NCBI GenBank assembly: GCA_949358305.1
Contig: OX442314.1
Coordinates: 28,768,001 to 28,832,000 of the forward strand
Direction of reading: 5' to 3'
Origin: Strigamia acuminata
Lineage: Eukaryota
DNA: 64,000 bases
Shown: positions 6,777 through 48,255 of the stretch, piece by piece
Layout of the letters: each line of letters begins with the position of its first letter
How positions within the stretch are numbered: the stretch's first letter is position 1
Notes under the pieces: generated by a model
What the model saw: the letters and a program-made list of their open reading frames with translations, nothing else
Told to the model about the DNA's origin: nothing
Database searches by the model: none
Position numbers and translations under genes: made by a program

Positions 6777-7078
6777 TGTGGTGATTCAGCATCACCTGAA
6801 GAAGTAATTAGCGGTGATTATTGTGTTACTAATACTCGCCACTAGAGCGCGCTAGAAATACCGACTAGACTGACTAGTCGCGTGTTTCTGCGAACCTGCA
6901 TAATCAGAAGGATTTGCATATGACGTCATTTCCGGTTAATATATATAGCCAATGCTTGACCGGAAACGACACTACAGTTACCACATTTCAGCAAGAGCAC
7001 CATTTACCTCACCTTTCAGGCCGTTTCACGGATTGATCGAGGACCGGTGCCCGCTGACCATTTCAACTGTACAACAGC
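6777..7078 (+). repeat. Element A 5' LTR, first part
   Basis: Matches 27336-27637. Contains ATTTGCAT, TGACGTCA, TTCCGG and a TATATATA box. Confidence 0.95.
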
Positions 7079-8990: not shown

Positions 8991-8992
8991 CG

Positions 8993-16504: not shown

Positions 16505-16508
16505 CAGC

Positions 16509-16837
16509 CACATTTATTTAGCGTAGCCAATCTACGCTAGAATAAATATTCGAACGATATTCGTTTAATTCGCACGAGAAAGCGAATTCTCGCGTGTTCA
16601 TAATAACACGTGGAAATACCCTAGACAACAAACATAGACCACGCGTAGGACTAAACAATTGGATCCGCCATTGTTTAGCGGCAACTCGTATTCGCAGCCG
16701 AATCCGAGGACCAACACAGGAAACATCTTGACTTATATTTGTATTAGTAAGCGTGTTTTAATAAAGCAGTATTTGAAATATATTGTATTCCCGAGTGTAT
16801 TATTTATTATCTTTAACCACAAAGTCGAATCACGACA
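16509..16837 (+). repeat. Element A 5' LTR, second part
   Basis: Matches 27638-27966; 302+329 = 631 bp, equal to the 3' LTR. Confidence 0.95.
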
Positions 16838-16839
16838 CG

Positions 16840-16857
16840 TGGGGGCCTGTCCGGGAT
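16840..16857 (+). promoter_or_regulatory. Primer-binding site, tRNA-Pro-like (element A)
   Basis: TGGGGGCCTGTCCGGGAT versus the tRNA-Pro complement TGGGGGCTCGTCCGGGAT (2 mismatches). Confidence 0.8.
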
Positions 16858-16929: not shown

Positions 16930-19774
16930 ATGACAAAAACTACCGCAGAAGATAGAAAAAGGCGTAACGACGAAAAGGATAGAAAAGAAGCCGAAGAAAT
17001 CGAACGCCAAAAAGCGGAAGAAGCGAACCACGTGGAACCAGAAGTCGAGACTAACTCGACTAAAGTTTCAACGGAATCATCAAGTGAAAGCCTTCCCCTT
17101 GCAAGACAACTTCCGTTTACGGGAGGCGAATTCGAAGGATCAGGAAGCTCTCACGAAGAAAACGGACTAAATAAATCGTTCGAAAACCCTCGATTCGGAT
17201 TGAAAAGCCCAAGACCAGTCGAAAAGGATCCCAGTGAAATGGATCTAATGACTCTTCTAAATAAAGCGGCAAACACAAGTGCCGCAATTATCAACGAGGC
17301 TGCCCGCGCAGACCAAGCAAGAACAGTCGCGTTAGAGAAGAAGAAAAACGAATTGATGGAAGATTTAGCCAGAGAGCATCGCGAGAAATTAGCTGCCATG
17401 GAACAGAGCTTGGCACAAGAACACCAAGCTAAACAAATGGCACTGGAGCGCGAGCTGGCTCGAGAATTGCTCGCGAAGCAGAAAATAATCGAACGAGAAA
17501 TGGCAAAGGACTGCCAGATCCGGCCGCCAAGCAACGGGTTAAGCCAGCATTCGGAGCCAAACTCCGTACAGAGCTCCCCAGAACGGTCTCACACAGCTAA
17601 GGAGCTGGTAGCCAAAGCAATAGAAGTAACTCGGGTAGCTTGCGCACACGGCATCGAGATCGACCAGGACAAGGATCCCTACGCAGAGCTAAGCCGAGTA
17701 ATCGACCTAGTAAATCAGAGGACTGAAAAACGATCGGCAGATAACACGGCCAGACGCGGAGAGAAACGACGTCGGGTCGGAGCAGATCGACAACAGTCCG
17801 AGACAGGCGGCGAAGCAACGTCAGACAGCGAAAGTATCGACTCTCAAGCATCTCACGGCAGTATCCGAGTCAACGGACTAGATAGCATCTTGAACGAATC
17901 GGACGAAGTCAAAGGAGAACTGTACGAGGCGTTTATACAGGATAGGAGGAATAATCAGGGCGCACAATCATGGGCAGTAAAAAACTCATTCGCAATGAAA
18001 ACTGGCCAAACCAGTAATAACAACCCAGGCGACCCTAACGCAGAACTAATCAGATGTATAAATCAGAAGAATCAAATACGCAACGAAGTAGGTCAAAATA
18101 AACTGGCCATGCCGACGCTCGAGGAGATTAACGCAGTTAAAAATCACCTCGAAAAGAAACACGCCGCCGAAGCGTATGCTGGGAGAGATTCCTACGTTTT
18201 TATCAAAAAAACGAACGAAGGCCTCACGGGGACCCGACTGGACGATCTGATACCGCCCGGAACAAAGTTGAGCCAAACCTCCGCTCCAGAGAAAGCGAAC
18301 CCAGATAACTCAACCATAGCGCAAGACCTCACGAATAACCCGAACACCGCGGGATCATCAGGGAAAACGTCGTTCCAACACAATCAGTTCGGACTGACGG
18401 GCAACGGTACGCATTACCCAAGCCTCCCTTCCGACAATCCACGATCATCACCGCTGCTTAGTGAGACTGACTCGCTAAGCAACCAACTACGGACGATGAA
18501 AGACGAACTCCTTCAGGCCATGGACCAAAAACTTCAACAAAGCCGTGGCCAAGAGACCGAGGAGGACGATCGAAGCGAAGGATTGTTGAAACGTTACTCC
18601 GCAGACCGATGGCTGTATTCTCGCAAGGATAACAACATCAAGTGGACGACCCTGAGACTAATTAAGTTCGACGGATCCTGGAACGCCGGCAACTTGTTTT
18701 TGGACGAAGTCGCCCTGACGATTAATCGCTTAGGAGCGGAACCCGACGAAATGGTTGCACGCGGAATACCAGAAATGCTGATCAACCGGGCCCGAAACTG
18801 GTACGCTGATGTCCAACCCCGAAACTGGGAAGATTTCGTCATAAAGTTCCACAATCAATATGGCGAGACGAGCCAAGAAATCCAGAAAAGAGTAAGCTCT
18901 ATGAAGCAAGCTCCCGGGGAAACTCTGAGGGAATACGTACAACGAGCCGACAGCCTGTTCCGTGAAATGGACAAACCATTTGACCAACACGCTCAGAAAG
19001 CTCTCTTCGAACAAGGACTAAACGAAACCGCAACCAAAGTCCTACGAGAAATGAACGCTCCTAAAGGGGATAATTTCAAAGCCATCCTAGCTTTCGTCGA
19101 GAAGAAACACACCGAAGTAAATGCTCGGTATAACGAAAATCTGACAAAAGAAGAGCGAGCTCTAGGAGTGGCCCGACAGCAACGAATACAGGAGCGCAGC
19201 ATAGACTCCACTAAGCTGCTCCAATCGCGAAATTATCTAAACGGAAGTATAGAGCCACTCCCCTCAAAGAAAAACCAACAAGCTTCTAACCCTTTACCAC
19301 CTCCGAATAAGGCCTATCGCACGCAAACTAACGCCGCCGAGGAAAAGTCGGAAGACGAAGTAAGCGAAGACTGAGCAATTCTCGGAAAGCGATGAGGCTG
19401 ACGAAGGTATCAACGATGTGGTACACGCAAACATGGGGAAGGAACTGGCGCCCAGCTACCGACCTCAGATGAAGTCCAGAAAATCGGAACACCACAACCC
19501 GAAAACAGAGGCGACTTCCGAGAAGAAGGACTACCCCAAAAAACCTTTTGAGCGGGAGGGAAAGAAGAAAAGCCCTTGTAATTTCTGTAACGAAGACGGC
19601 CACTGGCGTCAGGCCTGCCCAAAACTGGCAAAGAAAAAAGCCGACGACAAGGCCGCAGAGCGTGAGGAGCTAGTGAAATTGCTCGCGAAGGAACAAGAAA
19701 AAATCTTGAAGGAACTCACCGCCAAATTCGACAGTATGACAAAAAACTGGAACTCGCGGGCGGAACAAAAGTGA
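16930..19774 (+). CDS. gag: Gag of element A (split by a +1 frame break at ~19364-19374)
   Basis: 814-aa ORF with a capsid-like region (LINRARNWY...WEDFVIKF...KQAPGETLREYVQR), plus a downstream frame with the CCHC knuckle CNFCNEDGHWRQAC. Colinear with B gag. Confidence 0.9.
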
Positions 19775-19792
19775 TTCCACATCCGCTCGCGA
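19741..19792 (+). promoter_or_regulatory. -1 ribosomal frameshift signal (element A)
   Basis: A AAA AAC in the gag frame at 19741-19747, 6-nt spacer, stem TCGCGGGCGGA / TCCGCTCGCGA. pol is in the -1 frame. Confidence 0.8.
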
Positions 19793-22700
19793 TAACTTCG
19801 AAAACGATGGACCTTACACTGGTGGAAAAACAAATTAAAGAAATGAAAAAATTGTTGGAATTCTTCGAGGAAGCTGCCAACGAGGAAGTCACAACTCCAA
19901 CCAAAAAACGGAAATTCGAAATTAGAGACGAAGACGGTATAGCCAACGCTTTCATGACTTTGCCGCTTGACCAAGGGGCCAATCCTCTTAAAAAGCGAAT
20001 ACTTCGTTGCAACCTATCAACAGAAGCGAAGAGCGTACTGGCTAAAATACCAGTCTCTTTCGGCAAAAAGGTGTTAATGGGACTACTCGACTCGGGAGCG
20101 GATCAGTCGTTTATCTCCACCGACTTATTCGAATCACTCGAAGAAAAAATACAGAAAAAATTACGGGGAATGAACGAGAATATTCGAGTTCTTACAGCAG
20201 CGGGAGAAGTTAGAGCAGTGGGGACGTTATCAACCGATTTTGTATGGGAAGGAGGCACGATTAAGCATTTCTTCATCGTGTTACCAACCCGAGACACAAT
20301 CCTGCTGATAGGAATGGATTTGATGGAACGGATGAACATCCAGCCCAACCCAGTCACACGTTCGTGGAATTACATCGACAACCACGAGGACCCACGACTA
20401 CCCATAATACCTCCGGAACTCCTAGACAAAGCTAAGGACGACGAGGAATGGGGAGGAGGCGAAATTAAGAAGTTCATCCAAGACTATAATTTTAAGTCGT
20501 TTAATACTATCCTCCAAGAGGAGAATTTAATACATAATCTGGCCATGGACGCCAATCTTGGAGAAGAACAAACGAAACTCCTCGAGGAAATGCTCAAGAA
20601 GCACTCGAAGAACTTAAATAAAGATCCAGGAAAGACTAGTTACGTAATGCACGAGATCGAATTGGTTACGGGAAAACCGGTGCGAGTACCTTTTAAAACT
20701 ATGAATCCCCAAAAGAGACATATCGTAAGAACGATGTGCAACGAGTTGCTCGAAAAAGGGATCGTGTCGCACGCCATCGGAGAATATGGAATGAGGATTG
20801 TCCTCGTCATGCGACCAGGCTCCGAACCGCGCCTCTGCATCGATTATAGACCTTTAAACGCCATAACCGTCATCGACCCCATCCAAATGCCGTCAATAGA
20901 AGCGATTCTACGGGAGCTCGCCCCATTTAACTGGGTCACGACCATGGACTTGTCCAAGGGTTACTGGCAGGTTGAATTGCGGGAAGAGGATAAAGAGAAA
21001 ACAGCTTTTTGGGCACCACAGGGTCGACTGATGTTTAATGTAATGCCCTTCGGGTTAGTAAACGCACCCGCCACCTTTCAAAAACTAATAGAAAAAGTTC
21101 TCGGCGATGCCTTACACAAATACGCATGGGCTTACCTCGATGATATAGTCATAGTCTCCCAAACTTTTGAAGATCACCTGATACACGTGAATGACGTCAT
21201 GGAGCGACTCACAAAAGCCGGTCTAAACATTCATCCAGGGAAAAGTAAATTTTGCCGCAAAGAATTGGCATTCCTGGGTTACACAGTCGGAACAGGTGGC
21301 CTATCCATCGACCCGAAAAAGACCCAGGCGATTAGCCAGTTCCCCGCCCCGGAAGATGTAAAAGGAGTCCAACGTTTCATGGGCATGGTGAATTTCTTCA
21401 ATCGATTGCTCCCAAATTTGGCAGACGTCGCGGCGCCCATCACAGATCTGTTACGCAACGATAAAGATTTCGAGTGGACTGACCACTGCGAAACATCGTT
21501 TAACAAAATAAAACAAATGCTGATCGATGTAAAACGAATTCCCCTACCAGATCTTAATCGAGAATTCACTCTTCACACCGACGCCAGTCGAATTGGCCTA
21601 GGTGCTGCGTTGCTTCAAAAGCATGACATCGACGGAGTAGTGTTAGAGGTCCCGACGATGTTCATCAGCCGGAAATTACAAGCAGCCGAAAAGAATTATA
21701 ATGCGACAGAGTTAGAATGTCTAGCCGTCGTCTGGGCAATCCGAAAATTCAGACCATACCTGGAATTTACCAAGTTCAACGTACAAACTGACCACGAAGC
21801 ACTAAAGTGGTTAATGGCGTTGAAGGAACCGTCCGGAAGAATGGCTCGCTGGCAGCTAGAATTAATGGCTTGTGACTTAATCATTGAATACCGACCCGGA
21901 AAATTCAACGTCGTAGCAGACGCCCTCTCACGAGCCCCAGCTTCAGACCCCGAAGACGAGACCGACTGCGGAGAGGACGACTCACGCCTCTTCTACTGTC
22001 CGAACCCCGTCCGAAAATGGGAATTTAAAAAGCTAAACGAATTACCCAAGGAGAAACTCGAGTCAGGAGACCAGAATTATTACAGTTATTGGCTCCGAGC
22101 GTACCAGTCGGTCAAGGACGCTCACCCAAATTATGAGCTAACAATAGAACCTCGAATCTCCGACAAGTACGTTCGAGCATTCGTCGCCCACGTAAGCAAG
22201 GGGACGAATAGCAAACCGCCCACCAGGGACGAATTAATAGCCGCCCAGATGGCAGACGACTTCTGTAAAACTTATCGAGACTTCATCACAGATAAAATAT
22301 TTCCCGACGAGAATTTCGACGAAATCCAACGTGAAGAATTCGAAAGAGAAGCCTCCACGTACTTAATCGAGGATGGACTTCTACTAAAACACCACCCGAA
22401 TTTCCGCGATGATCTGACGGAGACAGGAACTTCGATGAAAGTCGTTATACCCAGGAGTCTGCTGACAAGGTTTCTGTGGATGGTCCACGGACACCCGCTC
22501 GCCGGACATTCTGGAGTGGCCAGAACGATCTACCGAGCAAATCAACTTTATTTCTGGCCAAAAATGACCCGAGATATTGTTCGTTTTATTCATCACTGCC
22601 CCAGATGCCAAGCGTGCAAGCCGAGGACGCCCAAGAACTACGAGAGAATCTCACTTGGCCCTTTCGCACCCTTCGATTGCTGGAGCGTGGATTTAATGGG

Positions 22701-23853
22701 CCCAAAACCCACGTCATCCAATAAAAACAAATATATATTAGTAATCATGGATGTCGCGACTGGATGGCCCGAACTCTTTCCAATGGAGAGACCAACTAAG
22801 CAAAAAATCATTCGATGTTTGTACGAAGTGGCGCTTCATTTTGGATTCCCTCGAAAATTAATCTCCGATAATGGACCACAATTCGCGTCAAATTTGTATA
22901 AAGACTTCTGTAAAAAATTCGACATCGAGACATCATATACATCAACCTATAATCCACGGGCCAATCCCGTCGAAAGGTTAAATCGCGATATAAAATATGC
23001 ACTAGCAATTTTCACCGATGTTCACTCCAGCTGGGACGAATATCTTCGTGAAATTGCCTTCAGCATCCGCACAACGATCTCAAGGAACCGCAAATTTTCT
23101 CCCGCGTTTCTAAACTTCGCTCGGGAACTCAGAGTACCCTGGGACCCACGAATACCGGAGGAAATACTGGAAATTGATCCTGAGAAGCCTCATATTTATG
23201 TCGACAGACTGGAGCAAATAATTTCGGCCACTTATCAGCACATGATGTCACACATATTCGACATGAGAGATCGTATTAGCATTGCTGGAAAGGATCGGCC
23301 CTTCTGCAATTTTAAAGTCAATGACCTCGTCTGGAAAGACACACATATTCAGTCCAGCGCCGATAAGGGGATCCACGCAGGCTTAGCAGACAAACGCGAC
23401 GGCCCGTACGTCATACTCGAAGCCCACGGCGGAAACGCTTTCAAGCTAAAAAGATTGGCAGATAACGTTAATTTTAGATCGATCCACGCCCGAGAATTAA
23501 CTCCATACTTACCTGAGTTTCCTCAAGAGGCTTGGACGGAATATCAGACGAAACCAGCGAAAAATCCAATTATTCGCGACATGTTTTTAGATGAACAAAC
23601 TGGCCCAACCAATTTAGTTCAAGATGAGTTACTCGAAGTGGCCGACGCCCCGGATGAGATTTCGGGGAGGGAGGAAATAGTCGCAGAATCTCCTAAAAAA
23701 GGAAAGCAATCAAACAAAAAGAAGACTACAGGAATCCCCAAACCTGATAAAATATACGGTATGCGCCGACACAAGCCAAACCCGTTCATAAAAGACGGGA
23801 AACTCGTCGGAAAACAAAAAGCGACTCCGGCCATTGTCTCAAACAATCGATAA
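19771..23853 (+). CDS. pol: Pol polyprotein of element A (protease, RT, RNase H, integrase)
   Basis: LLDSGA, LCIDYRPLN, DLSKGYWQ, YLDD, TDAS, ELECLAVVWA, HHCC zinc finger, SDNGPQF, VERLNR, GPY motif; uninterrupted 1360 aa. Confidence 0.97.
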   Translation: MIPHPLAITSKTMDLTLVEKQIKEMKKLLEFFEEAANEEVTTPTKKRKFEIRDEDGIANAFMTLPLDQGANPLKKRILRCNLSTEAKSVLAKIPVSFGKKVLMGLLDSGADQSFISTDLFESLEEKIQKKLRGMNENIRVLTAAGEVRAVGTLSTDFVWEGGTIKHFFIVLPTRDTILLIGMDLMERMNIQPNPVTRSWNYIDNHEDPRLPIIPPELLDKAKDDEEWGGGEIKKFIQDYNFKSFNTILQEENLIHNLAMDANLGEEQTKLLEEMLKKHSKNLNKDPGKTSYVMHEIELVTGKPVRVPFKTMNPQKRHIVRTMCNELLEKGIVSHAIGEYGMRIVLVMRPGSEPRLCIDYRPLNAITVIDPIQMPSIEAILRELAPFNWVTTMDLSKGYWQVELREEDKEKTAFWAPQGRLMFNVMPFGLVNAPATFQKLIEKVLGDALHKYAWAYLDDIVIVSQTFEDHLIHVNDVMERLTKAGLNIHPGKSKFCRKELAFLGYTVGTGGLSIDPKKTQAISQFPAPEDVKGVQRFMGMVNFFNRLLPNLADVAAPITDLLRNDKDFEWTDHCETSFNKIKQMLIDVKRIPLPDLNREFTLHTDASRIGLGAALLQKHDIDGVVLEVPTMFISRKLQAAEKNYNATELECLAVVWAIRKFRPYLEFTKFNVQTDHEALKWLMALKEPSGRMARWQLELMACDLIIEYRPGKFNVVADALSRAPASDPEDETDCGEDDSRLFYCPNPVRKWEFKKLNELPKEKLESGDQNYYSYWLRAYQSVKDAHPNYELTIEPRISDKYVRAFVAHVSKGTNSKPPTRDELIAAQMADDFCKTYRDFITDKIFPDENFDEIQREEFEREASTYLIEDGLLLKHHPNFRDDLTETGTSMKVVIPRSLLTRFLWMVHGHPLAGHSGVARTIYRANQLYFWPKMTRDIVRFIHHCPRCQACKPRTPKNYERISLGPFAPFDCWSVDLMGPKPTSSNKNKYILVIMDVATGWPELFPMERPTKQKIIRCLYEVALHFGFPRKLISDNGPQFASNLYKDFCKKFDIETSYTSTYNPRANPVERLNRDIKYALAIFTDVHSSWDEYLREIAFSIRTTISRNRKFSPAFLNFARELRVPWDPRIPEEILEIDPEKPHIYVDRLEQIISATYQHMMSHIFDMRDRISIAGKDRPFCNFKVNDLVWKDTHIQSSADKGIHAGLADKRDGPYVILEAHGGNAFKLKRLADNVNFRSIHARELTPYLPEFPQEAWTEYQTKPAKNPIIRDMFLDEQTGPTNLVQDELLEVADAPDEISGREEIVAESPKKGKQSNKKKTTGIPKPDKIYGMRRHKPNPFIKDGKLVGKQKATPAIVSNNR

Positions 23854-24031
23854 AAACAACCACAGGGGGGACACCTGTTACGTCCCACAATGCGTCTTAA
23901 TTGGCCAAACCAATCAAAGATGACATGAGACTAATAGTTAACCTCTAACCCGACCCACACTTATCACTGTCATCTCCGACTAAGCAACGATCACCTCGAG
24001 ACAGCCGTGAAATCAAATTAGTTTCCGAAAA

Positions 24032-27000
24032 ATGAGAAATGATTGGAAGAAAGAAATTGAACGGGCCGTAAACAACGCTTCCGAGGATGACGATGAAGAT
24101 CAAGTGGATTTGTTACAAATCATTGTAAACAACGAAGAGGGAAATTGGGACGAACCCAATGAACCCGATGTCCAACCCGACGTAAGTAAAAAATAGAAAA
24201 AATTCAATTATCGATAATCAAAAATACGAAATAAGTTCGTGGACTGACCACAAACGAAGAAATAATTTAACTTTAAGTGACAAATTATCAAAATTAATCA
24301 AATACCGAAAGAAAAATTAACTTCAAGACACGTGGTCGAAAAGCACATGGCCGACCATGACGCCATCTTGTGTTAGACGAAAGAATCTCTACAAAAATAT
24401 GACAAATTAATCAACGATCCTAATATATTTATTAATATTCTAATATTTAGGACGGATATCGCACTACGTGGGGGCAAATCGACCCGAAAAGAGTTTCCGC
24501 AGGCAGCTTATGGCGCGAAGTAATCCCCATACTGTTCCGACAAGCGCTCGAAGAAGCGGTCGACTTTGAACCATGGAAAATTCGCCTTTTATTGTCCCGT
24601 GCGATCAGCCGCTACTGGTCCAGCCAGCAAACGTTGATCCACTACATGCCGCGCCAATATCAAGCAGCTTTACGGGCAGTTATCTCGAGAAATATGGACC
24701 CGCCAGCGCCAATCCCGAATCCACTAATCCGAGCCGCCTTTCCTGACGACCAGCGAGGATGGGACGTTTACGAACAATGGCGCGACGCCGAAACAGATGA
24801 AGAAAAACACCAGATTCATATGGCATATTACGAAGAAGTAAGGCGGACCGCACATGACGAGGTTTTCAATTATCTACAGCCGGACGGTTACTCGACCGAG
24901 GAAATCAGGTTTTGGCTCCTTCAGATCCGCGAAGACCGGCCCGACCGCCCAGATTGGAGACCGAGACACGGTTTCATCACCTCGCAACGAGCAATGCATC
25001 AATTGCATTTTTTGGGCTTCTTTGGTCGCAAACGCCAGAAGGCCGAGAAACGTCTCTCCAACGAGCACGACGAAGCAGGCTGCTCAGCGAAGAAACCATG
25101 CCTGGACAAGCCAAGCACTTCCAGCAGCGCGCAGAATAAGAAACCCGCGACAGAGAAACGCCTGGCCAAACCAAGCGCTCTCTCTCGCCTGGGAAAGACG
25201 GAGATCCCACAAACATCGCGATTTCAATCCAGGGATGCCCCGTCAACCAGCCGAAGAAGAGAAAATGTACGCGAACGCCCCGACCGCCGAGAAGATCAAC
25301 GCCGACGCGATAGGAACCAAGAAAATTGGGACGATTATCGTAGAAATTACTTCCGACGGCGGGAAGAAAACAAGGAATCCTGGAATAGACACCGAGAGGA
25401 GTTCCTGCGCGAACGTGATGAAAGAGCCCGACGTGAACGAGAGAACCTCCGTCTACAAGACGAACGAAGAAGGAGAGGATCGGAGAGTCGCGCACGTTCA
25501 TGGAAAGCGTATCGTGAAGAAGAAATTCGACAGCGAGATAGGAGGCGCTGCGAAGATACACGATCAATTCGGGACAGTCCCGAACCAATGAAGATCGACG
25601 ATGAGGTAATTATCGACGAGGTCCCCGAGCAAAAGAAGATGTATACTCAGGCGGACCTCCTCGCGGTAGTTATGCAATACCAACAAATGCAGCCGAAACC
25701 AGTCTACCGCCCGACTCCCTCGACCGCCTCGAGTCTAGAGACGGCGCCAAGTGCTTTCATCAAGCCGGAACTCTCGCAGACGAGAAGCGTAACATCCAGC
25801 GTCAGCCTCCCAAGCGCCTTTCGCAAGAAAGTGATAATCGGCGCACCGACACTGAGTTCTGAAGAACAACTCAGACATCGAGAAGCTCGCTTTGGACCGG
25901 CCAAAGTCGAACCTCTCCCAACTATCCCCGAAGCCTCAACTTCAACGAGAACTCCAATCGTTTGGGACAAGCCCGAACCGGAAAAATCAAGACGTCTGGT
26001 CAGATCTGTGCCTCAGCCAACGACATCCACGGGACCCAATCCGATGTTGCCAGCCCCAGCAGTCATCCAAGCCTCGACTCCAATCAACCCTTCGGAGGTA
26101 ACGTTGCAACAGTTTCTGGAGGTAACGACCGTGGAGCAAGCTAGAGCGCTTTTGTGCGAGATGGACTCCTACCAACAAAACGTGATCCAAAACGTCATCA
26201 CGAACCTTCAGCGGATCTCGATTGAATATACGCAGAACAAAAATCGGGATCATCCAAATTGGAATACGAGGATCGTGGTTGCCATTACCGACTTGATGTC
26301 GATTTTGCTGGCCGCCGCCACCTTCCGAAACGCACGTGTTGCTGTGGCAGCCTGGATCGTGGTGGCCCACGAGGGTTTCCAAGTCCCGCCGGCTCTCGTA
26401 GACAGCTGGACCCGCCTAGTGCCCTCTGCGGCAGTAATTCGAGCCCAAATGGTGGCCCAGGACCCGGATCCAGAGACCTCCTATCAGAACGTTCGAGCGA
26501 TCATCCAACACCCACGCCCGTCGTCTTCAGTGACCACACCCGTCGTGGAAACTCCGGCTCCCAGGGATCCGACGCCTCCTCCTCCGCCTCCGCCGAAGGA
26601 AAATAGACCTTCCGAACCACTGGCCGAACCAGTCTCGCTCAAAAAGAAGGAAACAAAAGGAAAATTGCTCCGCCCAAAATCGAGCATGAAAGCTTCAAAG
26701 ACGGCCGAACCTCAGATCGCCGCCAGACTCCGGATGTACTTCCCGGGGTTGTCCTTGACGAAGGATACTGAAACAAAATTACTCCAAACCCCAGACCGTG
26801 GCTATTCTCTTTATGTCTGGATGAAGAACGCTATCGAAGCTGGAGCCGGAGGCGATCGCTTCATCCAGCATCAACGACTACTCCGAGCCCATCGCGCGCC
26901 AACCAGCATTGCCGAGGCCCAAAGAATCCATCACACCAATCAGGGAATGTCGCCCTTTTTGCCGCCAATTTGGGCCCACGAACGAACGGGGAATCCGCTG

Positions 27001-27141
27001 GAAGCGCCAGGTCACTTACGTTTCTACTTGAACGAGAGCGAAGACCCCTCGGACTACTCTTCAAAATTGACCACATCTCCCAACCTGGACGAACCAAGTT
27101 CGGAAGATAAGCCAAGTTACGCCGATAACTTGAAGAAATAA
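24032..27141 (+). CDS. Spliced ORF3 of element A, unknown function (join 24032-24181, 24451-27141; ~946 aa)
   Basis: An ATG exon of exactly 50 codons ends at GAC|GTAAGT. Acceptor ttctaatatttag|GAC at 24450 opens the same frame as ORF 24592-27141 with no stop. Homologous blocks with B ORF3. Confidence 0.8.
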
Positions 27142-27335: not shown

Positions 27336-27966
27336 TGTGGTGATTCAGCATCACCTGAAGAAGTAATTAGCGGTGATTATTGTGTTACTAATACTCGCCA
27401 CTAGAGCGCGCTAGAAATACCGACTAGACTGACTAGTCGCGTGTTTCTGCGAACCTGCATAATCAGAAGGATTTGCATATGACGTCATTTCCGGTTAATA
27501 TATATAGCCAATGCTTGACCGGAAACGACACTACAGTTACCACATTTCAGCAAGAGCACCATTTACCTCACCTTTCAGGCCGTTTCACGGATTGATCGAG
27601 GACCGGTGCCCGCTGACCATTTCAACTGTACAACAGCCACATTTATTTAGCGTAGCCAATCTACGCTAGAATAAATATTCGAACGATATTCGTTTAATTC
27701 GCACGAGAAAGCGAATTCTCGCGTGTTCATAATAACACGTGGAAATACCCTAGACAACAAACATAGACCACGCGTAGGACTAAACAATTGGATCCGCCAT
27801 TGTTTAGCGGCAACTCGTATTCGCAGCCGAATCCGAGGACCAACACAGGAAACATCTTGACTTATATTTGTATTAGTAAGCGTGTTTTAATAAAGCAGTA
27901 TTTGAAATATATTGTATTCCCGAGTGTATTATTTATTATCTTTAACCACAAAGTCGAATCACGACA
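27336..27966 (+). repeat. Element A 3' LTR
   Basis: 631 bp, TG...CA, preceded by GGGGAGGGACG and followed by TSD CAGT. Confidence 0.96.
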
Positions 27967-30449: not shown

Positions 30450-31514
30450 TGTGGTGACCTCAAATATTCCTATTTGAGTGCGCACCATATTTCCAAATTG
30501 TCTTATAAACATATTCAACAAGCTTATATGTTTTGTTTCAATGTAAATTGAAATAAAATATATATTAATCAAATATAAAACAAGACACAATATTACCCAA
30601 ATAATATTGTGTTTTGCAGCAAGTTTTGGCCCAGCAACAGCGTCAACCAATCGCGCTGCAGCGTGCATTGCTTTGATGATGCTGCTAGGCGTGTGCCTGG
30701 GCGGAGCATCCCTTCCCCTCGCGCGTGCCCGGCTCAATTGTTGCACACGACCCGAAGGCGGCCGTGTGTGATCTTTGTGCAACTCGTCATCTGCGCAGCT
30801 TTTCTGAGCAGATTCAGGAGTAAGCCAAACGGTTTTGGCCCACTCTTCCCGCATTCTTGATTCTGCTTCCAAACCATTCACATCTGTGTCAAACTTATGC
30901 CAACCATTGCTAAGTGTGATCTGTGATATCTGGAAGAGTTGAGATTCATTGCTGGTCCGTGCCAACTGTACGGAATAGCGCCCTTCTGCTTGAATTACTA
31001 CGCGTAATTTAAGCCATTTCTGTGTGGGAATTGACATTGAGCTTGCTCTGTCAATTTGAAGGCTTTGTGTCGAGTTTAACTCCACAAAGCAATTTGTGTA
31101 AAGACCGATTGTTACGTCGAGCTTGCTCCGTAATAATCGAATCGCTGTGTGCAAGACGTATTCTCGTGTCGAGCGTGCTCCACGAGGATTTTTAGTATAT
31201 TCAGCAACGTATTTTAGCGTCGAGTTTACTCCGCTAAAATCCCGCGCTCACACGACGCCGTCGACGCCATCTTGGAGCCAACGGTCAACTGTGAGTGTAT
31301 ATTTGAAGAAGAAGCCAGATCGACCCCAAACATTTTGAATAATACCTCCTTTGTATTTTGAACAATTAAAGCTATCTAATTTTTCCTTTACTCTGTGTAA
31401 AATCATTCCCCTAGACAAACATTTGGCCACAGAGTAGAAGTCCTGTACGGCATCTCTACGACGATTACTTGATAAGTCTCCTCGATTTATTAAGTAAAAA
31501 CCCGGATCGCCGCA
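30450..31514 (+). repeat. Element B 5' LTR
   Basis: Direct repeat of 42188-43252; TGTGGTGACC...GATCGCCGCA. Confidence 0.96.
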
Positions 31515-31516
31515 CT

Positions 31517-31534
31517 TGGGGGCCCAGCCGGGAT
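31517..31534 (+). promoter_or_regulatory. Primer-binding site, tRNA-Pro-like (element B)
   Basis: TGGGGGCCCAGCCGGGAT, 2 nt after the LTR; imperfect tRNA-Pro complement. Confidence 0.75.
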
Positions 31535-31606
31535 TGTTTTGATTGTTAAAATCCGATTTTTGCGAAAAGATCCTTTATTTCCATTGTTCTTTTTCAATTT
31601 GACAAA

Positions 31607-34504
31607 ATGGCGACGCCAATGCAAATTGTAAAACGACAGCGAGGTCGACCAAGCACTCAGAAACGAGCAGCGACGGTTTTGCCGGCTCTCGAGCCTGAAA
31701 TGCTTGTGGAGAAAATTATTTCCGAGGAAATAACACCAATTCCAGATCCGAAACAACTTAAGGATGCTGAAAATGAAGTTGCTCGAGCCCTGAGCGCATC
31801 GAGTGCGAGTTCTCACGAACAAGAACTCCCGCCACTTCCACTGGAGGAAGTGGAAAATACGTTACGTGAAATGGAAAGTGAATCGTCTCACGAATCACCT
31901 CCTCGCATGACCATGCTGGATGCTTTGAGAAATCAAGCACGCCAGGATGGCGCCCAAATAACGGACGACATGACGGTGGAAGAGATTCATCGCGCCATGA
32001 TACGACTTCACACTGACCGAGCCGTTTCAGATTTAAAATTTGAAGTGGAACGGAAAGAAGCAGAGCTTCAACAACAAAAAGCGGAGGTTGAGCTCCAACA
32101 CATGGAACTCAATCGACAAAATGAGGAATTTCTAGCCCAAAAAGCTAGAGAATACAGATTAAAAGGTGAAGTGGAAAATCTTTCTAAAATGAATGTTAGA
32201 AATGAACTTTCAATTCGCTCACACCAAGAGGCGCGAAAACAGCTCGAGCTTACCAAAAGTAAGCTGGAGCAGAAAAATAAAGAACTGATTGATTTGGCAG
32301 ACCACTACCAACGCAATCATAATCAACTAGTGAGATATGCTGCTGAATTAGACACACGTGCTAAAACACAGCGTACTCGCGAAAGTAATATAGCTAAGCG
32401 TGAAGACGAGATTTTCCACTCGCTGGATCAACCCAGTACGAGCGGACAAGTCAAGTCTAGCGGCCCTGCTAAGCGATCACAACCAGAAGAATCGCAAAAT
32501 CAAATAAATGAGAATGAAATTCTCCGAGCTGATTTGTTGCGCGCTCAAGAAGAGCTTGCAGAAATGAAAGATCGTTTGCAAGCAAGAAATTATACTGACC
32601 AATTGGTGCAACCAGAAATGGCTGCGCCAACTGTCCCTATTTTGACTCCCGAAACAATAACAATTTCTGTTGTTTCAGAGTTAAGTAGCCAATCTGGATT
32701 ATCAAGTGATGACGACCAACGTTCGCGTCGTCGCCATCGCTCAAAAAGAAAACGTCCTTCAGATTCTGAGGAACGGAGAGCTGATCGCAATCCGCTCCCT
32801 GGTAATCGAAACCCTATTTTTCACAATAGTGACCGACTGTTGGGAATGGTAGACGATCGAAACAGACGACATGAAACAGGTATTCACGTTGCCCGAACGA
32901 TACCACTGGCTCAGCAGCAAGATTCGTCGAAAAGAAGTCGACGAGACACCAATCCAGCACGCGAACCGCCGGACGGACATGAAAGCCCGCCAGGTGGGGG
33001 TCAGTATAGAAGAAATCCACCAGATGGAGGAAATCCAGATGGACACGGAGATGGACCACCTGGAGGTGGACGCCGACCGCCAGACGATGGTGACGGCGAC
33101 CCACCCGACCCACCTGAAACGCCACATTTCAACACGCCTTCAAATTCACAATCTGATTCAAGGTCGGATTCTGATGTGAATGCGCAACAAGAACGCGATA
33201 ATCGACATCGATCTCATCGACGTCGACATCGAGGCCACTCTTCTCGGCGTAATACTCATTATTACACTGCTGAGGAAATAGATCGATTATTAGCTGATCG
33301 TCGATCTTCTGATCGATCTGACGCTACTGCCGATAATGCTGACATTGCATTACGACAGAAAATTGCACAATACACTGCCAACAACTGGACTCACGATCTA
33401 GTTGATGAAAGAAATATCAGATGGGATCACATTAAACCCGCTTTATTCGATGGAGAATGGGAAGCTGGATCCACTCTTTTAGATGAAGTTTTACGAATTT
33501 CAAGGTTGAATGGCATTGCATGTCACACTGCTTTGAAAAGAGTAGTACCAAAAGCTCTTATAGACCGAGCTGAGAAATGGTTTTATTCTAAACAATTTCA
33601 AAATTGGAACCACTTTGTAGAAGAATTCATGACTGAGTATGGAGAGTCAAGTGAAGACTTACTACAAATGTGGGATAATCTTTCTCAAAATAAAGGCGAA
33701 AGTCTTCGCTCTTATTTAAGAAGGACTGAGGATTTATTGGTCACTCTCCCTTATACGATGGGAGACGCAGCCATTGATCGTCAATTCCGTCGTGGATTGA
33801 CAGATTATTCAAAAAATGTTCTGCTTTCAGTACGAGCACCTTATCCGGGTGGTTTCGCTGAATTAGCCAAATTTATGCGAGCTAACCAGATAAGAATTGA
33901 TGAGAATTATAAAGCTTATCTACCAGCTGATGAAAAAGTTGCGTACGCTAAGCGACAGCAACGGAGAAAGGAGTTGGCTAAAGACACCCGTTTTGCTAAC
34001 ACCCCTCTTTTGCAACCCCCAAAACGAGGAGATTTTTTGGCAGAGACTGCCAAGGAATCGAAAAAGGGATCGGATGGAAATAATCCTCATCCAACCCCTA
34101 AAGCTCACTTAGCTGAAGTGACAGAAATGGAAACTGCTTCTGAACCAGAGAAATCTGACTCGGAACCAGAAAGTGAGGCAGCAGCTGCATTATTAGCCCG
34201 TAATAACGCAGTAGCAAGAAAATTTGGACCAAAAATGGCACCTAAAAACGTTACTTTTGGTTCACCAAAGACAGACGCGCTCAGTAGATCGAAGTCGCCG
34301 ACCCCTAAAAAGGACGAAGCCAAACGTTCGAGTTCGCCTTCGCCAAAAGTCGCGAAATCGCCTGCTACTGACCCGTGTAATATTTGTAAAAAATTGGGAC
34401 ATTGGGCTAAAGAATGTCCTGACAGAAAATCGAGCAAAGACAAGATTATAGAAGAGTTCGAGAAATCGATGAAATCAATCGGCGAACTTCTAAAAAACTT
34501 GTAA
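31607..34504 (+). CDS. gag: Gag of element B
   Basis: 965 aa with a coiled coil, capsid-like LIDRAEKWF...WNHFVEEF...QNKGESLRSYLRR, and the CCHC knuckle CNICKKLGHWAKEC. Confidence 0.95.
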   Translation: MATPMQIVKRQRGRPSTQKRAATVLPALEPEMLVEKIISEEITPIPDPKQLKDAENEVARALSASSASSHEQELPPLPLEEVENTLREMESESSHESPPRMTMLDALRNQARQDGAQITDDMTVEEIHRAMIRLHTDRAVSDLKFEVERKEAELQQQKAEVELQHMELNRQNEEFLAQKAREYRLKGEVENLSKMNVRNELSIRSHQEARKQLELTKSKLEQKNKELIDLADHYQRNHNQLVRYAAELDTRAKTQRTRESNIAKREDEIFHSLDQPSTSGQVKSSGPAKRSQPEESQNQINENEILRADLLRAQEELAEMKDRLQARNYTDQLVQPEMAAPTVPILTPETITISVVSELSSQSGLSSDDDQRSRRRHRSKRKRPSDSEERRADRNPLPGNRNPIFHNSDRLLGMVDDRNRRHETGIHVARTIPLAQQQDSSKRSRRDTNPAREPPDGHESPPGGGQYRRNPPDGGNPDGHGDGPPGGGRRPPDDGDGDPPDPPETPHFNTPSNSQSDSRSDSDVNAQQERDNRHRSHRRRHRGHSSRRNTHYYTAEEIDRLLADRRSSDRSDATADNADIALRQKIAQYTANNWTHDLVDERNIRWDHIKPALFDGEWEAGSTLLDEVLRISRLNGIACHTALKRVVPKALIDRAEKWFYSKQFQNWNHFVEEFMTEYGESSEDLLQMWDNLSQNKGESLRSYLRRTEDLLVTLPYTMGDAAIDRQFRRGLTDYSKNVLLSVRAPYPGGFAELAKFMRANQIRIDENYKAYLPADEKVAYAKRQQRRKELAKDTRFANTPLLQPPKRGDFLAETAKESKKGSDGNNPHPTPKAHLAEVTEMETASEPEKSDSEPESEAAAALLARNNAVARKFGPKMAPKNVTFGSPKTDALSRSKSPTPKKDEAKRSSSPSPKVAKSPATDPCNICKKLGHWAKECPDRKSSKDKIIEEFEKSMKSIGELLKNL

Positions 34505-34537
34505 GCGCGCATCCAGACGGTCTAGTGGATGCGACGC
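34492..34537 (+). promoter_or_regulatory. -1 ribosomal frameshift signal (element B)
   Basis: A AAA AAC in the gag frame at 34492-34498, then stem CGCATCCA / TGGATGCG after a short spacer. pol is in the -1 frame. Confidence 0.8.
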
Positions 34538-37500
34538 CTACCGCCTCGGAAAATGAACTAACACCATCTCAAATTTTAGATGAATTTTTAAATACACAGA
34601 TTAAATTAGAATTAGAAAATAATTTAATATTTCCAAAAATTGATGTTTCCAGTTTAAGGCTCGTGCTGCAAAATGAAAACATCACTGAAGAATTTTTTAA
34701 AGAAAAAGTTCAACAAATAAAAGTTGATTGGGAATCTAAAATAAAAGATGCTGTTATTTTACTAGATGAAAAAGCTAGGCCAACACCTGAAATTACTGAT
34801 AGATCAGATAAAATTGATTTACCTGGTCTTGACGAATGCATTGAAAAATTAATGGCTACAACGCTAGTCACTAATGATTTATTGGACGAATTACCATTGG
34901 ATCCGCCGATAGAAATTAAGCCACCGCGACGTTTTAAATGCAAGTACGCGGACATACCAAACAGCAATGATTTGCCGACGATTCGATTGCAGACGGCAAA
35001 CGGTATGATAACAGGGATGTTAGACTCTGGAGCTAATCGAAGCTTCATGGCCTACTCCGTAGTAATTTCGCTGAAACTGGAAGATGAAATTCGACCAATT
35101 GGACCGGATGTGAGAGTTACGACTGCTTCAGAAGATGTAGTCCCTGAAGGAACTCTCCTACTTTCTTTTGCGTGGACACACGGGATGTTAAGTCATCCAT
35201 TCATAATTTTAAGAAATAAATATCCTATTATTTTATTAGGATGTGATTTCATGAATCGACTCAATATTCAATCGAATCCTAAGACCATGTCTTGGAATTT
35301 TGTCAAGTCTTTGAAAAAAGATTTACCTTTTGTTCCTCAAGCGATTCTTGATCGTTATCAAGAGTTCCTTGATCCACCCGAAGAAATCATGAAACGCGAC
35401 TTTATTAAAGCAAATCACATGAAAGCTGGTTCCGCCACTGCATGTCAAGCTAAAGTTGCCGATGAAGAAAATATAGTACAAAGACTTGTTAGCGACGCTA
35501 ATTTCTCAATGGAAAATAATTTAATGCTTGAAAAAGTATTAAAGAAACATGAAAAGATTTTATCACGCCGACCAGGTAGAACACACCTCGTTAGGCATGA
35601 AATTAAACTGGACACTAAAGTTCCAATTAGAGTTCCGTTTAAAAGCGTAAATCCACAGAAACGTGAAATTATCCGTCAAATCTGTCAAGATATGTTGGAT
35701 AATGGGTACGTCGAACAAGCCACTGGAGACTATGGAATGCGAATAGTTCTAGTGATGCGTCCGGATTGTGATCCGAGACTCTGCATTGATTTTAGACCAC
35801 TCAATGCACATACATTATACGACCCTCCTCAAATGCCCAGCATTGAGGAAATCTTGCGAGAACTCGGAAGATTTGAATGGGTCACAACGATAGATTTGTC
35901 AAAAGGCTATTGGCAAATAGAGGTTCATCCGAACGACCGTGCTAAAACTGCGTTTTGGAGTCCTTTGGGTCGACTACAGTTTCGAGTCATGCCCTTTGGC
36001 CTCATAAATGCGCCGTCAACTTTTCAAAAGTTGATAGAAAAAATTTTGGGGGATGCCTATCGAAAATTCGCATGGGCATACCTCGATGATATAATTATTA
36101 TATCAAAAAATTTTGAAGAACACATGAGTCATCTAGAAGAAATTCTGAGTAAACTTGAAAATGCAAATCTTCATGTTCATCCAGAAAAATCGAAATTTGG
36201 CAGAAAAGAATTAACTTTCCTTGGTTACAAGTTAAGTGTTCAAGGAGTTAGTGTCGACCCTAAAAAAGTCGCCGCCATTAAAGAAATGCCAGCTCCTTCA
36301 AATTTGAAAGAGTTGCAAAGATTTTTGGGAATGGTGAACTTTTTTCACCGATTACTCAAGAATCTGGCAGTCATGACAGAACCTCTACGTCCTTTACTCA
36401 AAAAGGATGTGGAATTTATTTGGTCAGAAATCCATCAAGAAGCTTTTGATCAAATAAAAGATGCTTTAACGAATGCAGAAACAATGGCCATGCCTGATTT
36501 GACAGAACCATTTATTGTGCATACCGACGCCAGCAGAAAAGGACTAGGCGCCGCGCTTATGCAAATGAGGGAAATTGATGATCAAAATATCGAAGTGCCT
36601 TGTGTTTATGCCAGCAGAAGTTTGCAACCTGCTGAGATAAATTACAGCGCCACAGAATTAGAATGCCTTGCGGTAATCTGGGCATTACGCAAATTCCGAC
36701 ATTACTTGGAATTTACAACATTCATAGTAAGGACTGACCATCAAGCATTAAAATGGTTGATGCAGTTAGACGAACCTGCCGGAAGGCTAGCGCGTTGGCA
36801 AATGGAGCTAATGCGCTACTCTTTCGAAATACAATATATTAAAGGTCCACTAAATGTTTTAGCGGATGCTTTATCCAGATCACCGATTGACAAACCGGAA
36901 AATCCTGAAGATGATGGAGATAATGATGAATTATTATCTTACTGTCCATCACCGCAACGAAATTGGAAAATGGGAAAATTTCATGAACTTCCTGTCTCCA
37001 CGCTGGAGGAAAAGGAAGATCACGAATTCGTCAACTACTGGACTAAAATTTATGACCCCTCTGAGGAATCAGATGACGTCATAAAAGCGCAAATTTCAAG
37101 GAAATTTCAAGTTCCTTCGTCAAATGTTTTAATAAAAGCATTTGTCGCCAAAATTGTAGAACGTCTTGATTGTGAACCTCCCACAAGGGAAGACATAATT
37201 AAGGCCCAAAAAGAAGATAAAGTTTGCCAATTAATGCGTAATTTTTTAAATTGTAATCAATTTCCGCCTGACGTCACAACGCGACTCCAGAGGAAACAAT
37301 ACAGAAAACACGCAACCACCTTCTTAATTGAAGATGACTTATTAATGCAATTTCATCCCACAATGTCTGATGAATTGGGGGAGGATGGGAGAGCACTCAA
37401 AGTTTTTGTACCTCAGTCATTGAAGTATAAAATTATTTGGCTAATGCATGGCCACCCACTTTCTGGCCACCCAGGAATTGCAAGGACTCTTTATCGAGCA

Positions 37501-38973
37501 CGCCGAATTTATACCTGGAAAGGCATGAAATCGGACATTACGAGATTCATTCGACATTGCGAGCGTTGTCAAGCTTGCAAACCTCGAACGAAAGGACAAA
37601 TTGAAGCAGCGCAAATGGGTCCTTACAGCCCATTTGACTGTCTAAGTGTTGATTTGACCGGCCCGAAACCTCGGACGCGCAAAAACAACACACATATTTT
37701 AGTCATACTTGACGTGGCAACTCATTGGCCAGAATTATATCCAATGTGTAACCCCACTGCTGGAAAAGTAGCAAATTGCATTTATCACCTTTCCATGAGC
37801 ATGGGATTCCCTCGTAAAATTATTTCTGACAACGGCCCGCAATTTCGTGCCCAAGTCTTTAAAAAATTTTGTGAAAAGTTCAAGATGGTTCCAACACCAA
37901 CTTCAACGTATCACCCACAAGCTAACCCGGTTGAAAGGGTTAACCGTGACATCAAATATTTGGTTGCAATTTATTCATCTGTTCATTCCAAATGGGACGA
38001 ATATTTGCGTGAATTTGCATTTAGTTTGAGAACTACGGTGACGAGAGGAAGAGACTTCTCTCCCGCATTTCTTAACTTTTTTCGCGAACTCAGAGTACCT
38101 TGGGATCCAAGAATACCTGAAGGAATTTTGGTCGTAGATCCAAAAAACCCACATTTATACGTGCAAAAATTAGAAGCCGTTATCGCCGAAACATATCAGC
38201 ACATGATGTCACACGTGTTAGATTTGCGTAGACGAGTTAATCTTAAAAAAGAAGGTGAGAAGTTCTCCAATTTTAAATTAAACGATTTAGTTTGGAGAGA
38301 TTCTCATGTTTTGTCGAGCGCTGCCCGCGGCATTGCAGCTGGCATCGCTGATAAAAGAACAGGACCTTATGTAATAACCAAAGTATTACAGGGAGGATCG
38401 GTGGAATTGAGAAAGCTGGTAAACAACGAAATATTTCCAGCTGTCCATTCGTCTGAATTAACTCCGTATTTCCCGAGTTTCGATCAGGAAGTATGGTTAG
38501 AAGGCGAGGAAGTCGGTCAAAAGACTGAAAATATAATTAACACGTTAGATGACGATGAATTAAAGAAAATACCTGTCGATAATTCATCCAAACCACAAAT
38601 GGAGTCAGACCTTGTGAATAACGACGTTGAACTTCGTGACAGTTTCAAAAAGCTTGAAATTGCTAAAAAATTAAATAAAAAGGTGTTTTTAGAAAAGAAA
38701 CAAAAAACATCTGAAATAAAAGACTCATCTGACTCAGTCTCCGATGACAATGAAGACGGCGATTTAAATACAATAAATCCCTCGCCGACAAAGAGATATA
38801 ATCTTTGGACTCGTAAACCGAGAGGAAAAAACAACATGTGTCTTCTCCCCTCGATAACCTCGAGATCCAGGGATCAGCCGTATGACGTAAGGAGCAATTC
38901 CCCAAGCCATACGCAAACCAATCAAACAATAAGATTGGATGACGTCACTAACCGCGACGTTACCCAAACGTAA
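34525..38973 (+). CDS. pol: Pol polyprotein of element B (protease, RT, RNase H, integrase)
   Basis: MLDSGA, LCIDFRPLN, YLDD, TDAS, HHCC, SDNGPQF, VERVNR, GPY; uninterrupted 1482 aa. Confidence 0.97.
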   Translation: MDATPTASENELTPSQILDEFLNTQIKLELENNLIFPKIDVSSLRLVLQNENITEEFFKEKVQQIKVDWESKIKDAVILLDEKARPTPEITDRSDKIDLPGLDECIEKLMATTLVTNDLLDELPLDPPIEIKPPRRFKCKYADIPNSNDLPTIRLQTANGMITGMLDSGANRSFMAYSVVISLKLEDEIRPIGPDVRVTTASEDVVPEGTLLLSFAWTHGMLSHPFIILRNKYPIILLGCDFMNRLNIQSNPKTMSWNFVKSLKKDLPFVPQAILDRYQEFLDPPEEIMKRDFIKANHMKAGSATACQAKVADEENIVQRLVSDANFSMENNLMLEKVLKKHEKILSRRPGRTHLVRHEIKLDTKVPIRVPFKSVNPQKREIIRQICQDMLDNGYVEQATGDYGMRIVLVMRPDCDPRLCIDFRPLNAHTLYDPPQMPSIEEILRELGRFEWVTTIDLSKGYWQIEVHPNDRAKTAFWSPLGRLQFRVMPFGLINAPSTFQKLIEKILGDAYRKFAWAYLDDIIIISKNFEEHMSHLEEILSKLENANLHVHPEKSKFGRKELTFLGYKLSVQGVSVDPKKVAAIKEMPAPSNLKELQRFLGMVNFFHRLLKNLAVMTEPLRPLLKKDVEFIWSEIHQEAFDQIKDALTNAETMAMPDLTEPFIVHTDASRKGLGAALMQMREIDDQNIEVPCVYASRSLQPAEINYSATELECLAVIWALRKFRHYLEFTTFIVRTDHQALKWLMQLDEPAGRLARWQMELMRYSFEIQYIKGPLNVLADALSRSPIDKPENPEDDGDNDELLSYCPSPQRNWKMGKFHELPVSTLEEKEDHEFVNYWTKIYDPSEESDDVIKAQISRKFQVPSSNVLIKAFVAKIVERLDCEPPTREDIIKAQKEDKVCQLMRNFLNCNQFPPDVTTRLQRKQYRKHATTFLIEDDLLMQFHPTMSDELGEDGRALKVFVPQSLKYKIIWLMHGHPLSGHPGIARTLYRARRIYTWKGMKSDITRFIRHCERCQACKPRTKGQIEAAQMGPYSPFDCLSVDLTGPKPRTRKNNTHILVILDVATHWPELYPMCNPTAGKVANCIYHLSMSMGFPRKIISDNGPQFRAQVFKKFCEKFKMVPTPTSTYHPQANPVERVNRDIKYLVAIYSSVHSKWDEYLREFAFSLRTTVTRGRDFSPAFLNFFRELRVPWDPRIPEGILVVDPKNPHLYVQKLEAVIAETYQHMMSHVLDLRRRVNLKKEGEKFSNFKLNDLVWRDSHVLSSAARGIAAGIADKRTGPYVITKVLQGGSVELRKLVNNEIFPAVHSSELTPYFPSFDQEVWLEGEEVGQKTENIINTLDDDELKKIPVDNSSKPQMESDLVNNDVELRDSFKKLEIAKKLNKKVFLEKKQKTSEIKDSSDSVSDDNEDGDLNTINPSPTKRYNLWTRKPRGKNNMCLLPSITSRSRDQPYDVRSNSPSHTQTNQTIRLDDVTNRDVTQT

Positions 38974-48253: not shown

Positions 48254-48255
48254 AG

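Follow-up and report, generated by a model that had tools for sequence, protein, structure and literature searches.

The window described here is a 64,000-nucleotide (nt) stretch of the Strigamia acuminata genome (GenBank assembly GCA_949358305.1, contig OX442314.1, positions 28,768,001 to 28,832,000, forward strand), and all positions are counted from its first letter. It is animal DNA, in which exons of DEG/ENaC channels (Pfam) stand together with nested long terminal repeat (LTR) elements. Two of these, element A (6777-27966) and element B (30450-43252), are Gypsy retrotransposons in which pol is followed by a third open reading frame (ORF3). This third gene is homologous in the two elements and likely spliced from a short first exon of its own; judged from its sequence, it is not an Env gene and matches no named family or fold.

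Membership of Ty3/Gypsy is indicated by the order protease, reverse transcriptase (RT), RNase H, integrase in pol together with a Ty3-like RT (Pfam; solved structures), and by paired LTRs, a primer-binding site, a polypurine tract and a target duplication, the last being 4 bp long at each of the two elements. The closest solved relative of the pol of A is Ty3 Gag-Pol (E 1.8e-80). Both insertions are recent, as the LTR pairs are 100% (A) and 99.9% (B) identical. Between the elements, identity is 56% from RT to integrase and 31% across the best 270 amino acids (aa) of gag. A quick integrase tree of 36 rows, from which P0035-P0037 were left out by a length filter, places them as sister lineages (99% in the Shimodaira-Hasegawa-like approximate likelihood ratio test, SH-aLRT) distant from 34 database relatives, and the integrase regions of the 37 closest relatives show an identity of only 28-35%.

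The third gene has the following predicted layout:

24032..24181, plus strand: ORF3 exon 1 of A, beginning with ATG, 150 nt, 50 acidic codons (34% Asp/Glu), in weak colinear alignment with the leader of P0038, a database protein described below
24182..24450, plus strand: predicted intron of A (GT-AG, phase 0), 269 nt, GC 0.28
24451..27141, plus strand: ORF3 exon 2 of A, 896 codons
39098..39175, plus strand: predicted extra short intron in the 5' untranslated region (UTR) of B ORF3, with a GTAAGT donor, a branch-like motif, a pyrimidine tract and a TAG 9 nt upstream of the ATG
39184..39444, plus strand: ORF3 exon 1 of B, ATG at 39184, 87 codons
39445..39795, plus strand: predicted intron of B (GT-AG, phase 0), 351 nt, AT-rich, with a strong predicted fold (z -7.75)
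39796..42015, plus strand: second ORF3 exon of B, 739 codons, its first in-frame Met being residue 159

The intron of A runs from a GAC/GTAAGT donor at 24182 to a TTTAG acceptor ending at 24450, that of B from CGG/GTAAAT at 39445 to TTTTACAG ending at 39795. Splicing would give a protein of 946 aa (50+896) in A and of about 826 aa in B, while without splicing the exon-1 frame of A meets a stop 4 codons into the intron. The other five frames of A exon 2 hold 21-32 stops each. An initial annotation of this DNA, made from the letters and a list of open reading frames, had proposed the arrangement in A (a 50-codon acidic ATG exon with a GTAAGT donor, joined in phase 0 to the long frame to give about 946 aa), and its coordinates and peptide agree with ours; it had also credited B with the same architecture, which is borne out by the 87-codon exon, the 351-nt phase-0 intron and the 739-aa frame. 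The 78-nt intron in the 5' UTR of B is likely, going by its signals. GC content at third codon positions (GC3) is 0.59 in exon 2 of B compared with 0.32-0.33 in B gag and pol; the gap is small in A (0.56 in ORF3, 0.49-0.50 in gag and pol). The AATAAA signals that precede the 3' LTR downstream of ORF3 do not exceed chance (24% and 16% of shuffles).

That the intron is spliced out, giving the products of about 946 and 826 aa, appears very probable from several kinds of sequence evidence. By a simple score devised for this analysis (T-rich, G-poor), the acceptor ranks first of 253 YAG sites in A and second of 236 in B; by a generic matrix, the donors rank fourth of 367 and sixth of 506 GT sites. 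The 11-mer at the donor of A occurs three times in the window, and its other two copies end host DEG/ENaC exons. Homology between A and B begins at exon-2 residues 4 and 5, that is 4-5 codons 3' of the acceptor, far upstream of the first in-frame Met (residue 66 in A, 159 in B), and since it precedes that Met, the N domain of B needs an upstream exon. Of 5000 spacer shuffles, 0.8% (A) and 1.3% (B) gave an ATG frame of at least 40 codons that ends at a phase-0 consensus donor, a criterion set post hoc with the data already seen. The intron is common to A and B at the same place despite the 56% identity of pol. The first exons themselves have no mutual sequence likeness (z -1.0). In P0038, a leader and an N domain stand in a single frame, matching the splice prediction, and exon 1 of A aligns to this leader at a near-expected distance, with 13-14 of 5000 shuffles as good.

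The two AT-rich introns each have a GC-richer core with an identical 9-mer (24345-24353 and 39626-39634), which we take to be YY1-like. In intron B the predicted structure places the branch region, as well as an internal donor-acceptor pair, within hairpins and pairs the two ends of the intron with one another; this was not seen in A. Going by the model, the fold of intron B could regulate splicing.

Within the predicted A protein, five segments can be distinguished:

24460..25023, plus strand: N domain, conserved among A, B and P0038 and predicted to be helical
25252..25575, plus strand: Arg-rich mixed-charge tract of 108 aa with 39 Arg and 29 Asp/Glu, modelled as a single long helix
26104..26466, plus strand: middle domain, predicted helical (A against P0038 z 9.1, A against B z 3.9, B against P0038 not significant)
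26572..26601, plus strand: polyproline run, common to A and B, absent from P0038
26725..27069, plus strand: C domain, common to A and B, absent from P0038

The homology of A and B lies well beyond chance in the N and C domains (z 9.9 and 10.4 respectively), neither score being reached in any of 2000 shuffles, and less strongly in the middle domain (z 3.9; 8/2000 shuffles as high), while six cross-domain controls ranged from z -1.4 to 2.7. Whole-length BLASTP recovered the C domain alone (24% over 139 aa, E 5e-4), and overall identity is about 25%, against 56% in pol. The six motif pairs quoted in the initial annotation all exist and are colinear. It had also drawn attention to an Arg/Glu-rich tract and a polyproline run; both occur in A and the run also in B, but the tract is confined to A, a Ser/Arg tract taking the same place in the linker of B. 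The N domain has a conserved Trp/basic helix. A reading of three tryptophans as a MADF/Myb domain was dropped, as their spacing differs and Pfam finds none.

A profile built from A and B found a sole match among 1.84 billion representatives, P0038 (E 9e-5, profile probability 95.6), a JGI/IMG protein of 525 aa encoded on a 2,921-base contig. Its N domain scores z 15.0 with A and 7.4 with B, and it lacks the C domain. All three proteins have an acidic N-terminal leader (18-34% Asp/Glu), and basic motifs resembling a nuclear localisation signal (NLS) are present in A and P0038. Residues 1-19 of P0038 precede its first Met; they could stem from translation into the end of an intron, in which case an intron would lie closer to the start than it does in A and B.

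Other searches returned no relatives: none of near length for A ORF3 in a word-indexed protein search (7991 candidates), none for its residues 545-870 among shorter proteins (word-indexed, 3967 candidates), no usable match in the ESM Atlas for A ORF3 or the B N domain, and none among viral contigs for pol or P0038. Metagenome contigs yielded 12 loci at 28-35% pol identity, of which none matched ORF3 at E 0.5, and Pfam gave no family for A and B ORF3 at E 0.1 or for P0038 at E 1. The initial annotation had looked to structure prediction for a fold. Models of the full A ORF3 and of its N domain are all-helical and of low confidence (predicted local distance difference test, pLDDT, 45.6 and 49.4), too low a quality for a fold to be named. 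Viral Foldseek comparisons gave TM-scores of at most 0.15, the best structure match in the PDB had Z 5.9 over 54 residues (root-mean-square deviation 2.5), and PDB profile searches reached E 0.11 at best.

The selective upkeep of ORF3 was judged from variant contigs, thousands of which map to element A, with ORF3 covered in the same way as pol. In the 40 best-supported of 639 variant rows (5 non-coding ones dropped), 10 of the 13 ORF3 variants are synonymous against an expected fraction of 0.28 (p 4e-4), as are 13/21 in pol. Among the 12 listed length variants of 38, not one disrupts ORF3: none lies in exon 2, and the single one in exon 1 amounts to three bases. The gene is apparently under purifying selection.

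None of the characters of an Env was found. The exon-1 peptides are acidic, their best 11-residue hydropathies being 0.68 and 1.02, and by hydropathy, the only guide used here in place of a dedicated predictor, there is no signal peptide. No furin site with fusion peptide was seen, the three R-x-K/R-R motifs of A all lying inside the charged tract and B having none. A C-terminal transmembrane anchor is likewise missing, since the sole hydrophobic stretch is internal and not conserved: a 19-mer of A (residues 607-626, mean Kyte-Doolittle 1.84) within the predicted helical middle domain; the highest values of B (1.22) and P0038 (1.33) are lower. This 19-mer qualifies the statement of the initial annotation that signal peptide, furin-fusion arrangement and anchor are all lacking, which otherwise stands. 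Conserved ectodomain cysteines are absent, none of the four in A being invariant, and no Env profile matched A or B (E 0.1) or P0038 (E 1). The 826-946 aa products also have neither a myristoylation start nor a transmembrane segment of the sORF2/FAST type, and Pfam found no GDSL or DEDDy enzyme domain in ORF3. A confident match to a known Env, which the initial annotation had recognised as fatal to its proposal, or to another named family, emerged from neither Pfam, PDB profiles nor fold searches.

An element copied from RNA loses an intron whenever its spliced full-length RNA is reverse-transcribed, and in A and B such a loss would keep the reading frame whole. We propose that the intron survives because ORF3 is expressed from a separate, spliced message that is driven by an internal promoter close to where pol ends, has no primer site and is not copied back; of the steps considered here, we lean towards such a promoter and expect with somewhat greater assurance that the protein is nuclear. 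There would then be two RNAs, a short spliced message that cannot be copied and a genomic RNA that stays unspliced. The genomic RNA would have to keep strong splice sites unspliced, and we tentatively suggest, as one possible reading and short of an even chance, that the ORF3 protein is the switch: likely a nuclear protein that helps unspliced genomic RNA to escape splicing and exit the nucleus, like CERV of the Caenorhabditis elegans element Cer1. It might bind RNA or splicing factors through the Arg-rich linker and the conserved helical domains.

This CERV- or Rev-like role is argued, with the same reserve, from analogy and composition. The composition suits a nuclear RNA role, with no signal peptide, few cysteines, basic motifs (A and P0038) and an Arg mixed-charge (A) or Ser/Arg (B) tract, and tracts of both types have been tied to nuclear speckles and mRNA export (10.1101/771592). 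The initial annotation had inferred a complex-retrovirus-like accessory gene family maintained by selection, and had left the choice open between a regulator of RNA export or transcription and a silencing suppressor. What holds of this is a non-Env, probably spliced third gene in two diverged Gypsy families under apparent purifying selection. A bolder version, which we regard as doubtful, is that an unsampled animal Gypsy lineage has acquired a stand-alone, host-style gene with its own promoter, introns and a new three-domain protein family, which controls splicing versus export independently of Rev, Rex and CERV, the intron acting as a feedback sensor and being retained since only unspliced RNA protected by the protein is packaged.

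Several observations weigh against a spliced gene for a nuclear export factor. B has neither a K-K/R-x-K/R motif nor a classic NLS, and the alignments of A, B and P0038 show no invariant cysteines such as CERV has. P0038 is tied neither to a retrotransposon nor to a DNA as opposed to an RNA source, and its linker is Lys-rich instead of Arg-rich. Its match to exon 1 is modest: 144/5000 shuffles do as well against the whole protein, 7 of 1388 unrelated control windows attain the exon-1 score of 42, and a non-coding spacer frame scores 40. The ORF3 junction is absent among the 15 listed joints of 33, which come from two runs of unknown kind in one study, possibly the study that also yielded the window. 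A structured RNA target is not conserved, as intron B (z -7.75) folds strongly and intron A does not (z -1.1), and B is structured throughout (63/291 windows at z <= -3); no structured cis target matched Rfam at E 0.5. Many simple retroelements export unspliced RNA by cis elements alone (PMC10309623), so a protein is not forced. As to selection, the initial annotation had regarded neutral evolution of ORF3 as evidence against its view; the synonymous excess speaks for constraint over all 13 variants, but seven of them lie in one 37-nt cluster, without which 4/6 are synonymous (p 0.058), and the count rests on the best 40 of 639 rows.

Roles as a transactivator or in anti-silencing are close rivals that fit almost as well as the export role. 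The same spliced gene could encode a nuclear protein that activates transcription from the LTR or counters its silencing in chromatin, and that is made first, by way of an internal promoter; foamy-virus Tas and human T-cell leukaemia virus Tax are the models for such a protein. The acidic leader of all three proteins (18-34% Asp/Glu) and the conserved Trp/basic helix of the N domain would suit this, as would CRE-like and ETS-like motifs in the LTR of A and just 5' of the first exon of B, the presumed YY1-like motif common to both introns, and the internal promoters documented for Tor elements. Motifs this short are, however, frequent, the window holding 29 CRE-like and 39 ETS-like matches on both strands together; no known DNA-binding family matches, and the Arg/Glu and Ser/Arg tracts point rather to RNA processing. 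We think an activator unlikely, if worth serious attention. A little less probable in our view is a suppressor of silencing by PIWI-interacting RNAs (piRNA) or RNA interference (RNAi), or of another post-transcriptional host defence, the protein binding RNA or host proteins in the manner of a disordered scaffold. The fast divergence of ORF3 (about 25% against 56% in pol) would be expected in a conflict, both insertions are recent, and very many variant contigs cover ORF3 like pol; yet gag is fast too (31% over the best 270 aa), which makes the speed of divergence unspecific, and no likeness to a known suppressor was found.

The remaining explanations fare less well. A cytoplasmic capsid partner for trafficking or Env-free spread, its polyproline run recruiting host adaptors, could account for the run at the same place in A and B, and Drosophila sORF2 elements are known to spread without an Env (10.1101/2025.03.14.642691); sORF2 is a short membrane protein, however, ORF3 has no conserved transmembrane segment or myristoylation start, and P0038 lacks the polyproline run. 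We consider this role improbable. More improbable still is a genuine acceptor whose donor lies in the LTR or gag, a CERV-like fusion to which the short exon 1 is incidental. Cer1 does use such a layout, and gag of A has several in-phase donors, the best (19360) scoring 7.2 against 7.1 for the exon-1 donor, but the six best gag donors of B are all out of phase, A and B each have an ATG exon with a phase-0 donor adjoining the intron, and the P0038 leader resembles exon 1 of A, a comparison from which gag was left out. Very improbable, finally, is a captured host or viral gene that is carried along without function: the high GC3 of B exon 2 (0.59 against 0.32-0.33 in gag and pol) hints at a separate origin, and yet open frames of 896 and 739 codons, domains about 25% identical and a synonymous excess are found, and capture may explain the origin of the gene but not its upkeep.

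The other parts of the two elements are as follows:

6777..7078, plus strand: element A 5' LTR, first part, 100% identical to 27336-27637, its flank ending in the 4-bp target duplication
16505..16837, plus strand: element A 5' LTR, second part, 100% identical to the second half of the 3' LTR
16840..16857, plus strand: element A primer-binding site, immediately 3' of the LTR, presumably tRNA-Pro-like
16930..19374, plus strand: element A gag (Retrotrans_gag, E 1.8e-10)
19666..23853, plus strand: element A pol, with protease, RT, RNase H plus integrase (Pfam; Ty3 Gag-Pol match)
27336..27966, plus strand: element A 3' LTR, preceded by a polypurine tract and identified by its identity to the 5' LTR
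30450..31514, plus strand: element B 5' LTR, 99.9% identical to 42188-43252, with a 4-bp target duplication
31607..38973, plus strand: element B gag and pol in overlapping frames (Pfam, open reading frames)
42188..43252, plus strand: element B 3' LTR, from the LTR comparison

In this copy of A, a three-frame reading shows the gag frame broken near 19370, with the zinc knuckle in a different frame. Directly 3' of the pol stop of A, at 23862-23880, a purine run is followed by a 7-mer resembling the start of an LTR, and this could be what is left of an earlier 3' end, with the ORF3 cassette having joined the element behind it. In run X2, one contig connects 19259 with 27308, corresponding to a deletion form of A without pol and ORF3. 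The 5' LTR of A is split by element C (7079-16504), which has identical LTRs of 1,913 bp, no pol and a single 473-aa frame (12576-13997) without a Pfam match; it is likely a recent non-autonomous element, and sequence comparison found its frame to be unrelated to ORF3. A motif repeated twice in this frame resembles a stretch near the start of the gag-like frame of element D (tblastn, E 0.001). Element D (45761-56500) is an LTR element with a gag-like frame only (52299-54131), and a 950-bp insertion bounded by inverted ends interrupts its 5' LTR. Gene pieces of the DEG/ENaC type (ASC family), at least three of them and related to one another, stand at 1-50, 5457-5951 and 58608-59087 and form a tandem cluster interrupted by the inserted elements, and 27-nt units stand in a tandem array at 62203-62826 within a transposase-like frame.

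Complex regulation by accessory proteins has long been considered a retroviral hallmark. An export role for ORF3 would make an old puzzle testable, namely the survival of a canonical intron in a genome copied through RNA, and it predicts two junctions, a start site in the spacer and a nuclear protein. Non-Env third frames as such are a known and recurring class, of which Cer1 CERV and the ORF3s of rotifer elements are examples, and internal promoters are known in Tor elements; the initial annotation had overlooked these close precedents (PMC10309623, PMC4402516, PMC5408684). The literature search, which was partial (few subscription papers, without supplements, Repbase, Dfam or GyDB), brought up no description of the ORF3 family or of a Gypsy third gene whose exons both lie 3' of pol. 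We consider this protein family new, together with the layout in which both coding exons follow pol and which is retained in two families; a new fold is not claimed.

Among the systems compared, errantivirus Env has the position after pol alone in common with ORF3, which has neither signal peptide nor fusion peptide and lacks both conserved cysteines and a C-terminal anchor (PMC13524379; PMC5408684). In the Oikopleura elements Tor3b/4b, the third gene is expressed from an internal promoter in pol or the following spacer, as we infer for ORF3, but it encodes a membrane Env glycoprotein, and no splicing was seen in its message from that promoter (PMC4402516). Gypsy-like LTR elements of bdelloid rotifers carry varied non-Env ORF3s in the env slot, these being GDSL esterases, DEDDy exonucleases or small transmembrane proteins, whereas ORF3 of A and B is without a Pfam match (PMC5408684). 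The plant elements Grande and Retand have an accessory frame that lies after pol and ahead of the 3' LTR, which in Grande encodes a nuclear protein and has its own promoter; these frames are antisense and have a TRP28 domain, and no intron is mentioned in the text of that source (PMC11963269).

The nearest parallel is CERV of the Gypsy/Ty3 element Cer1, a nuclear non-Env protein that occupies the env slot, is made from a spliced message and is needed for the export of genomic RNA (PMC10309623; PMC3315495). Its first four exons come from the gag region, while both coding exons of ORF3 lie after pol, and its 517 aa include invariant cysteines and a G-protein-like domain, while ORF3 has no invariant Cys. 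As regards exons shared with gag, in-phase gag donors occur in A and none among the best of B; as regards a G-protein-like domain, the models of A ORF3 and its N domain are all-helical at low confidence (pLDDT about 46 and 49). We do not class ORF3 as CERV, because gag-shared exons are not indicated and invariant cysteines are absent, a separation made from the description of CERV and not by direct comparison with its sequence. CERV is the one worked-out Gypsy export factor in the literature found, and if the role suggested here is correct, ORF3 would be a second, unrelated family of export factors with another gene layout, implying that retrotransposons invent such regulators repeatedly.

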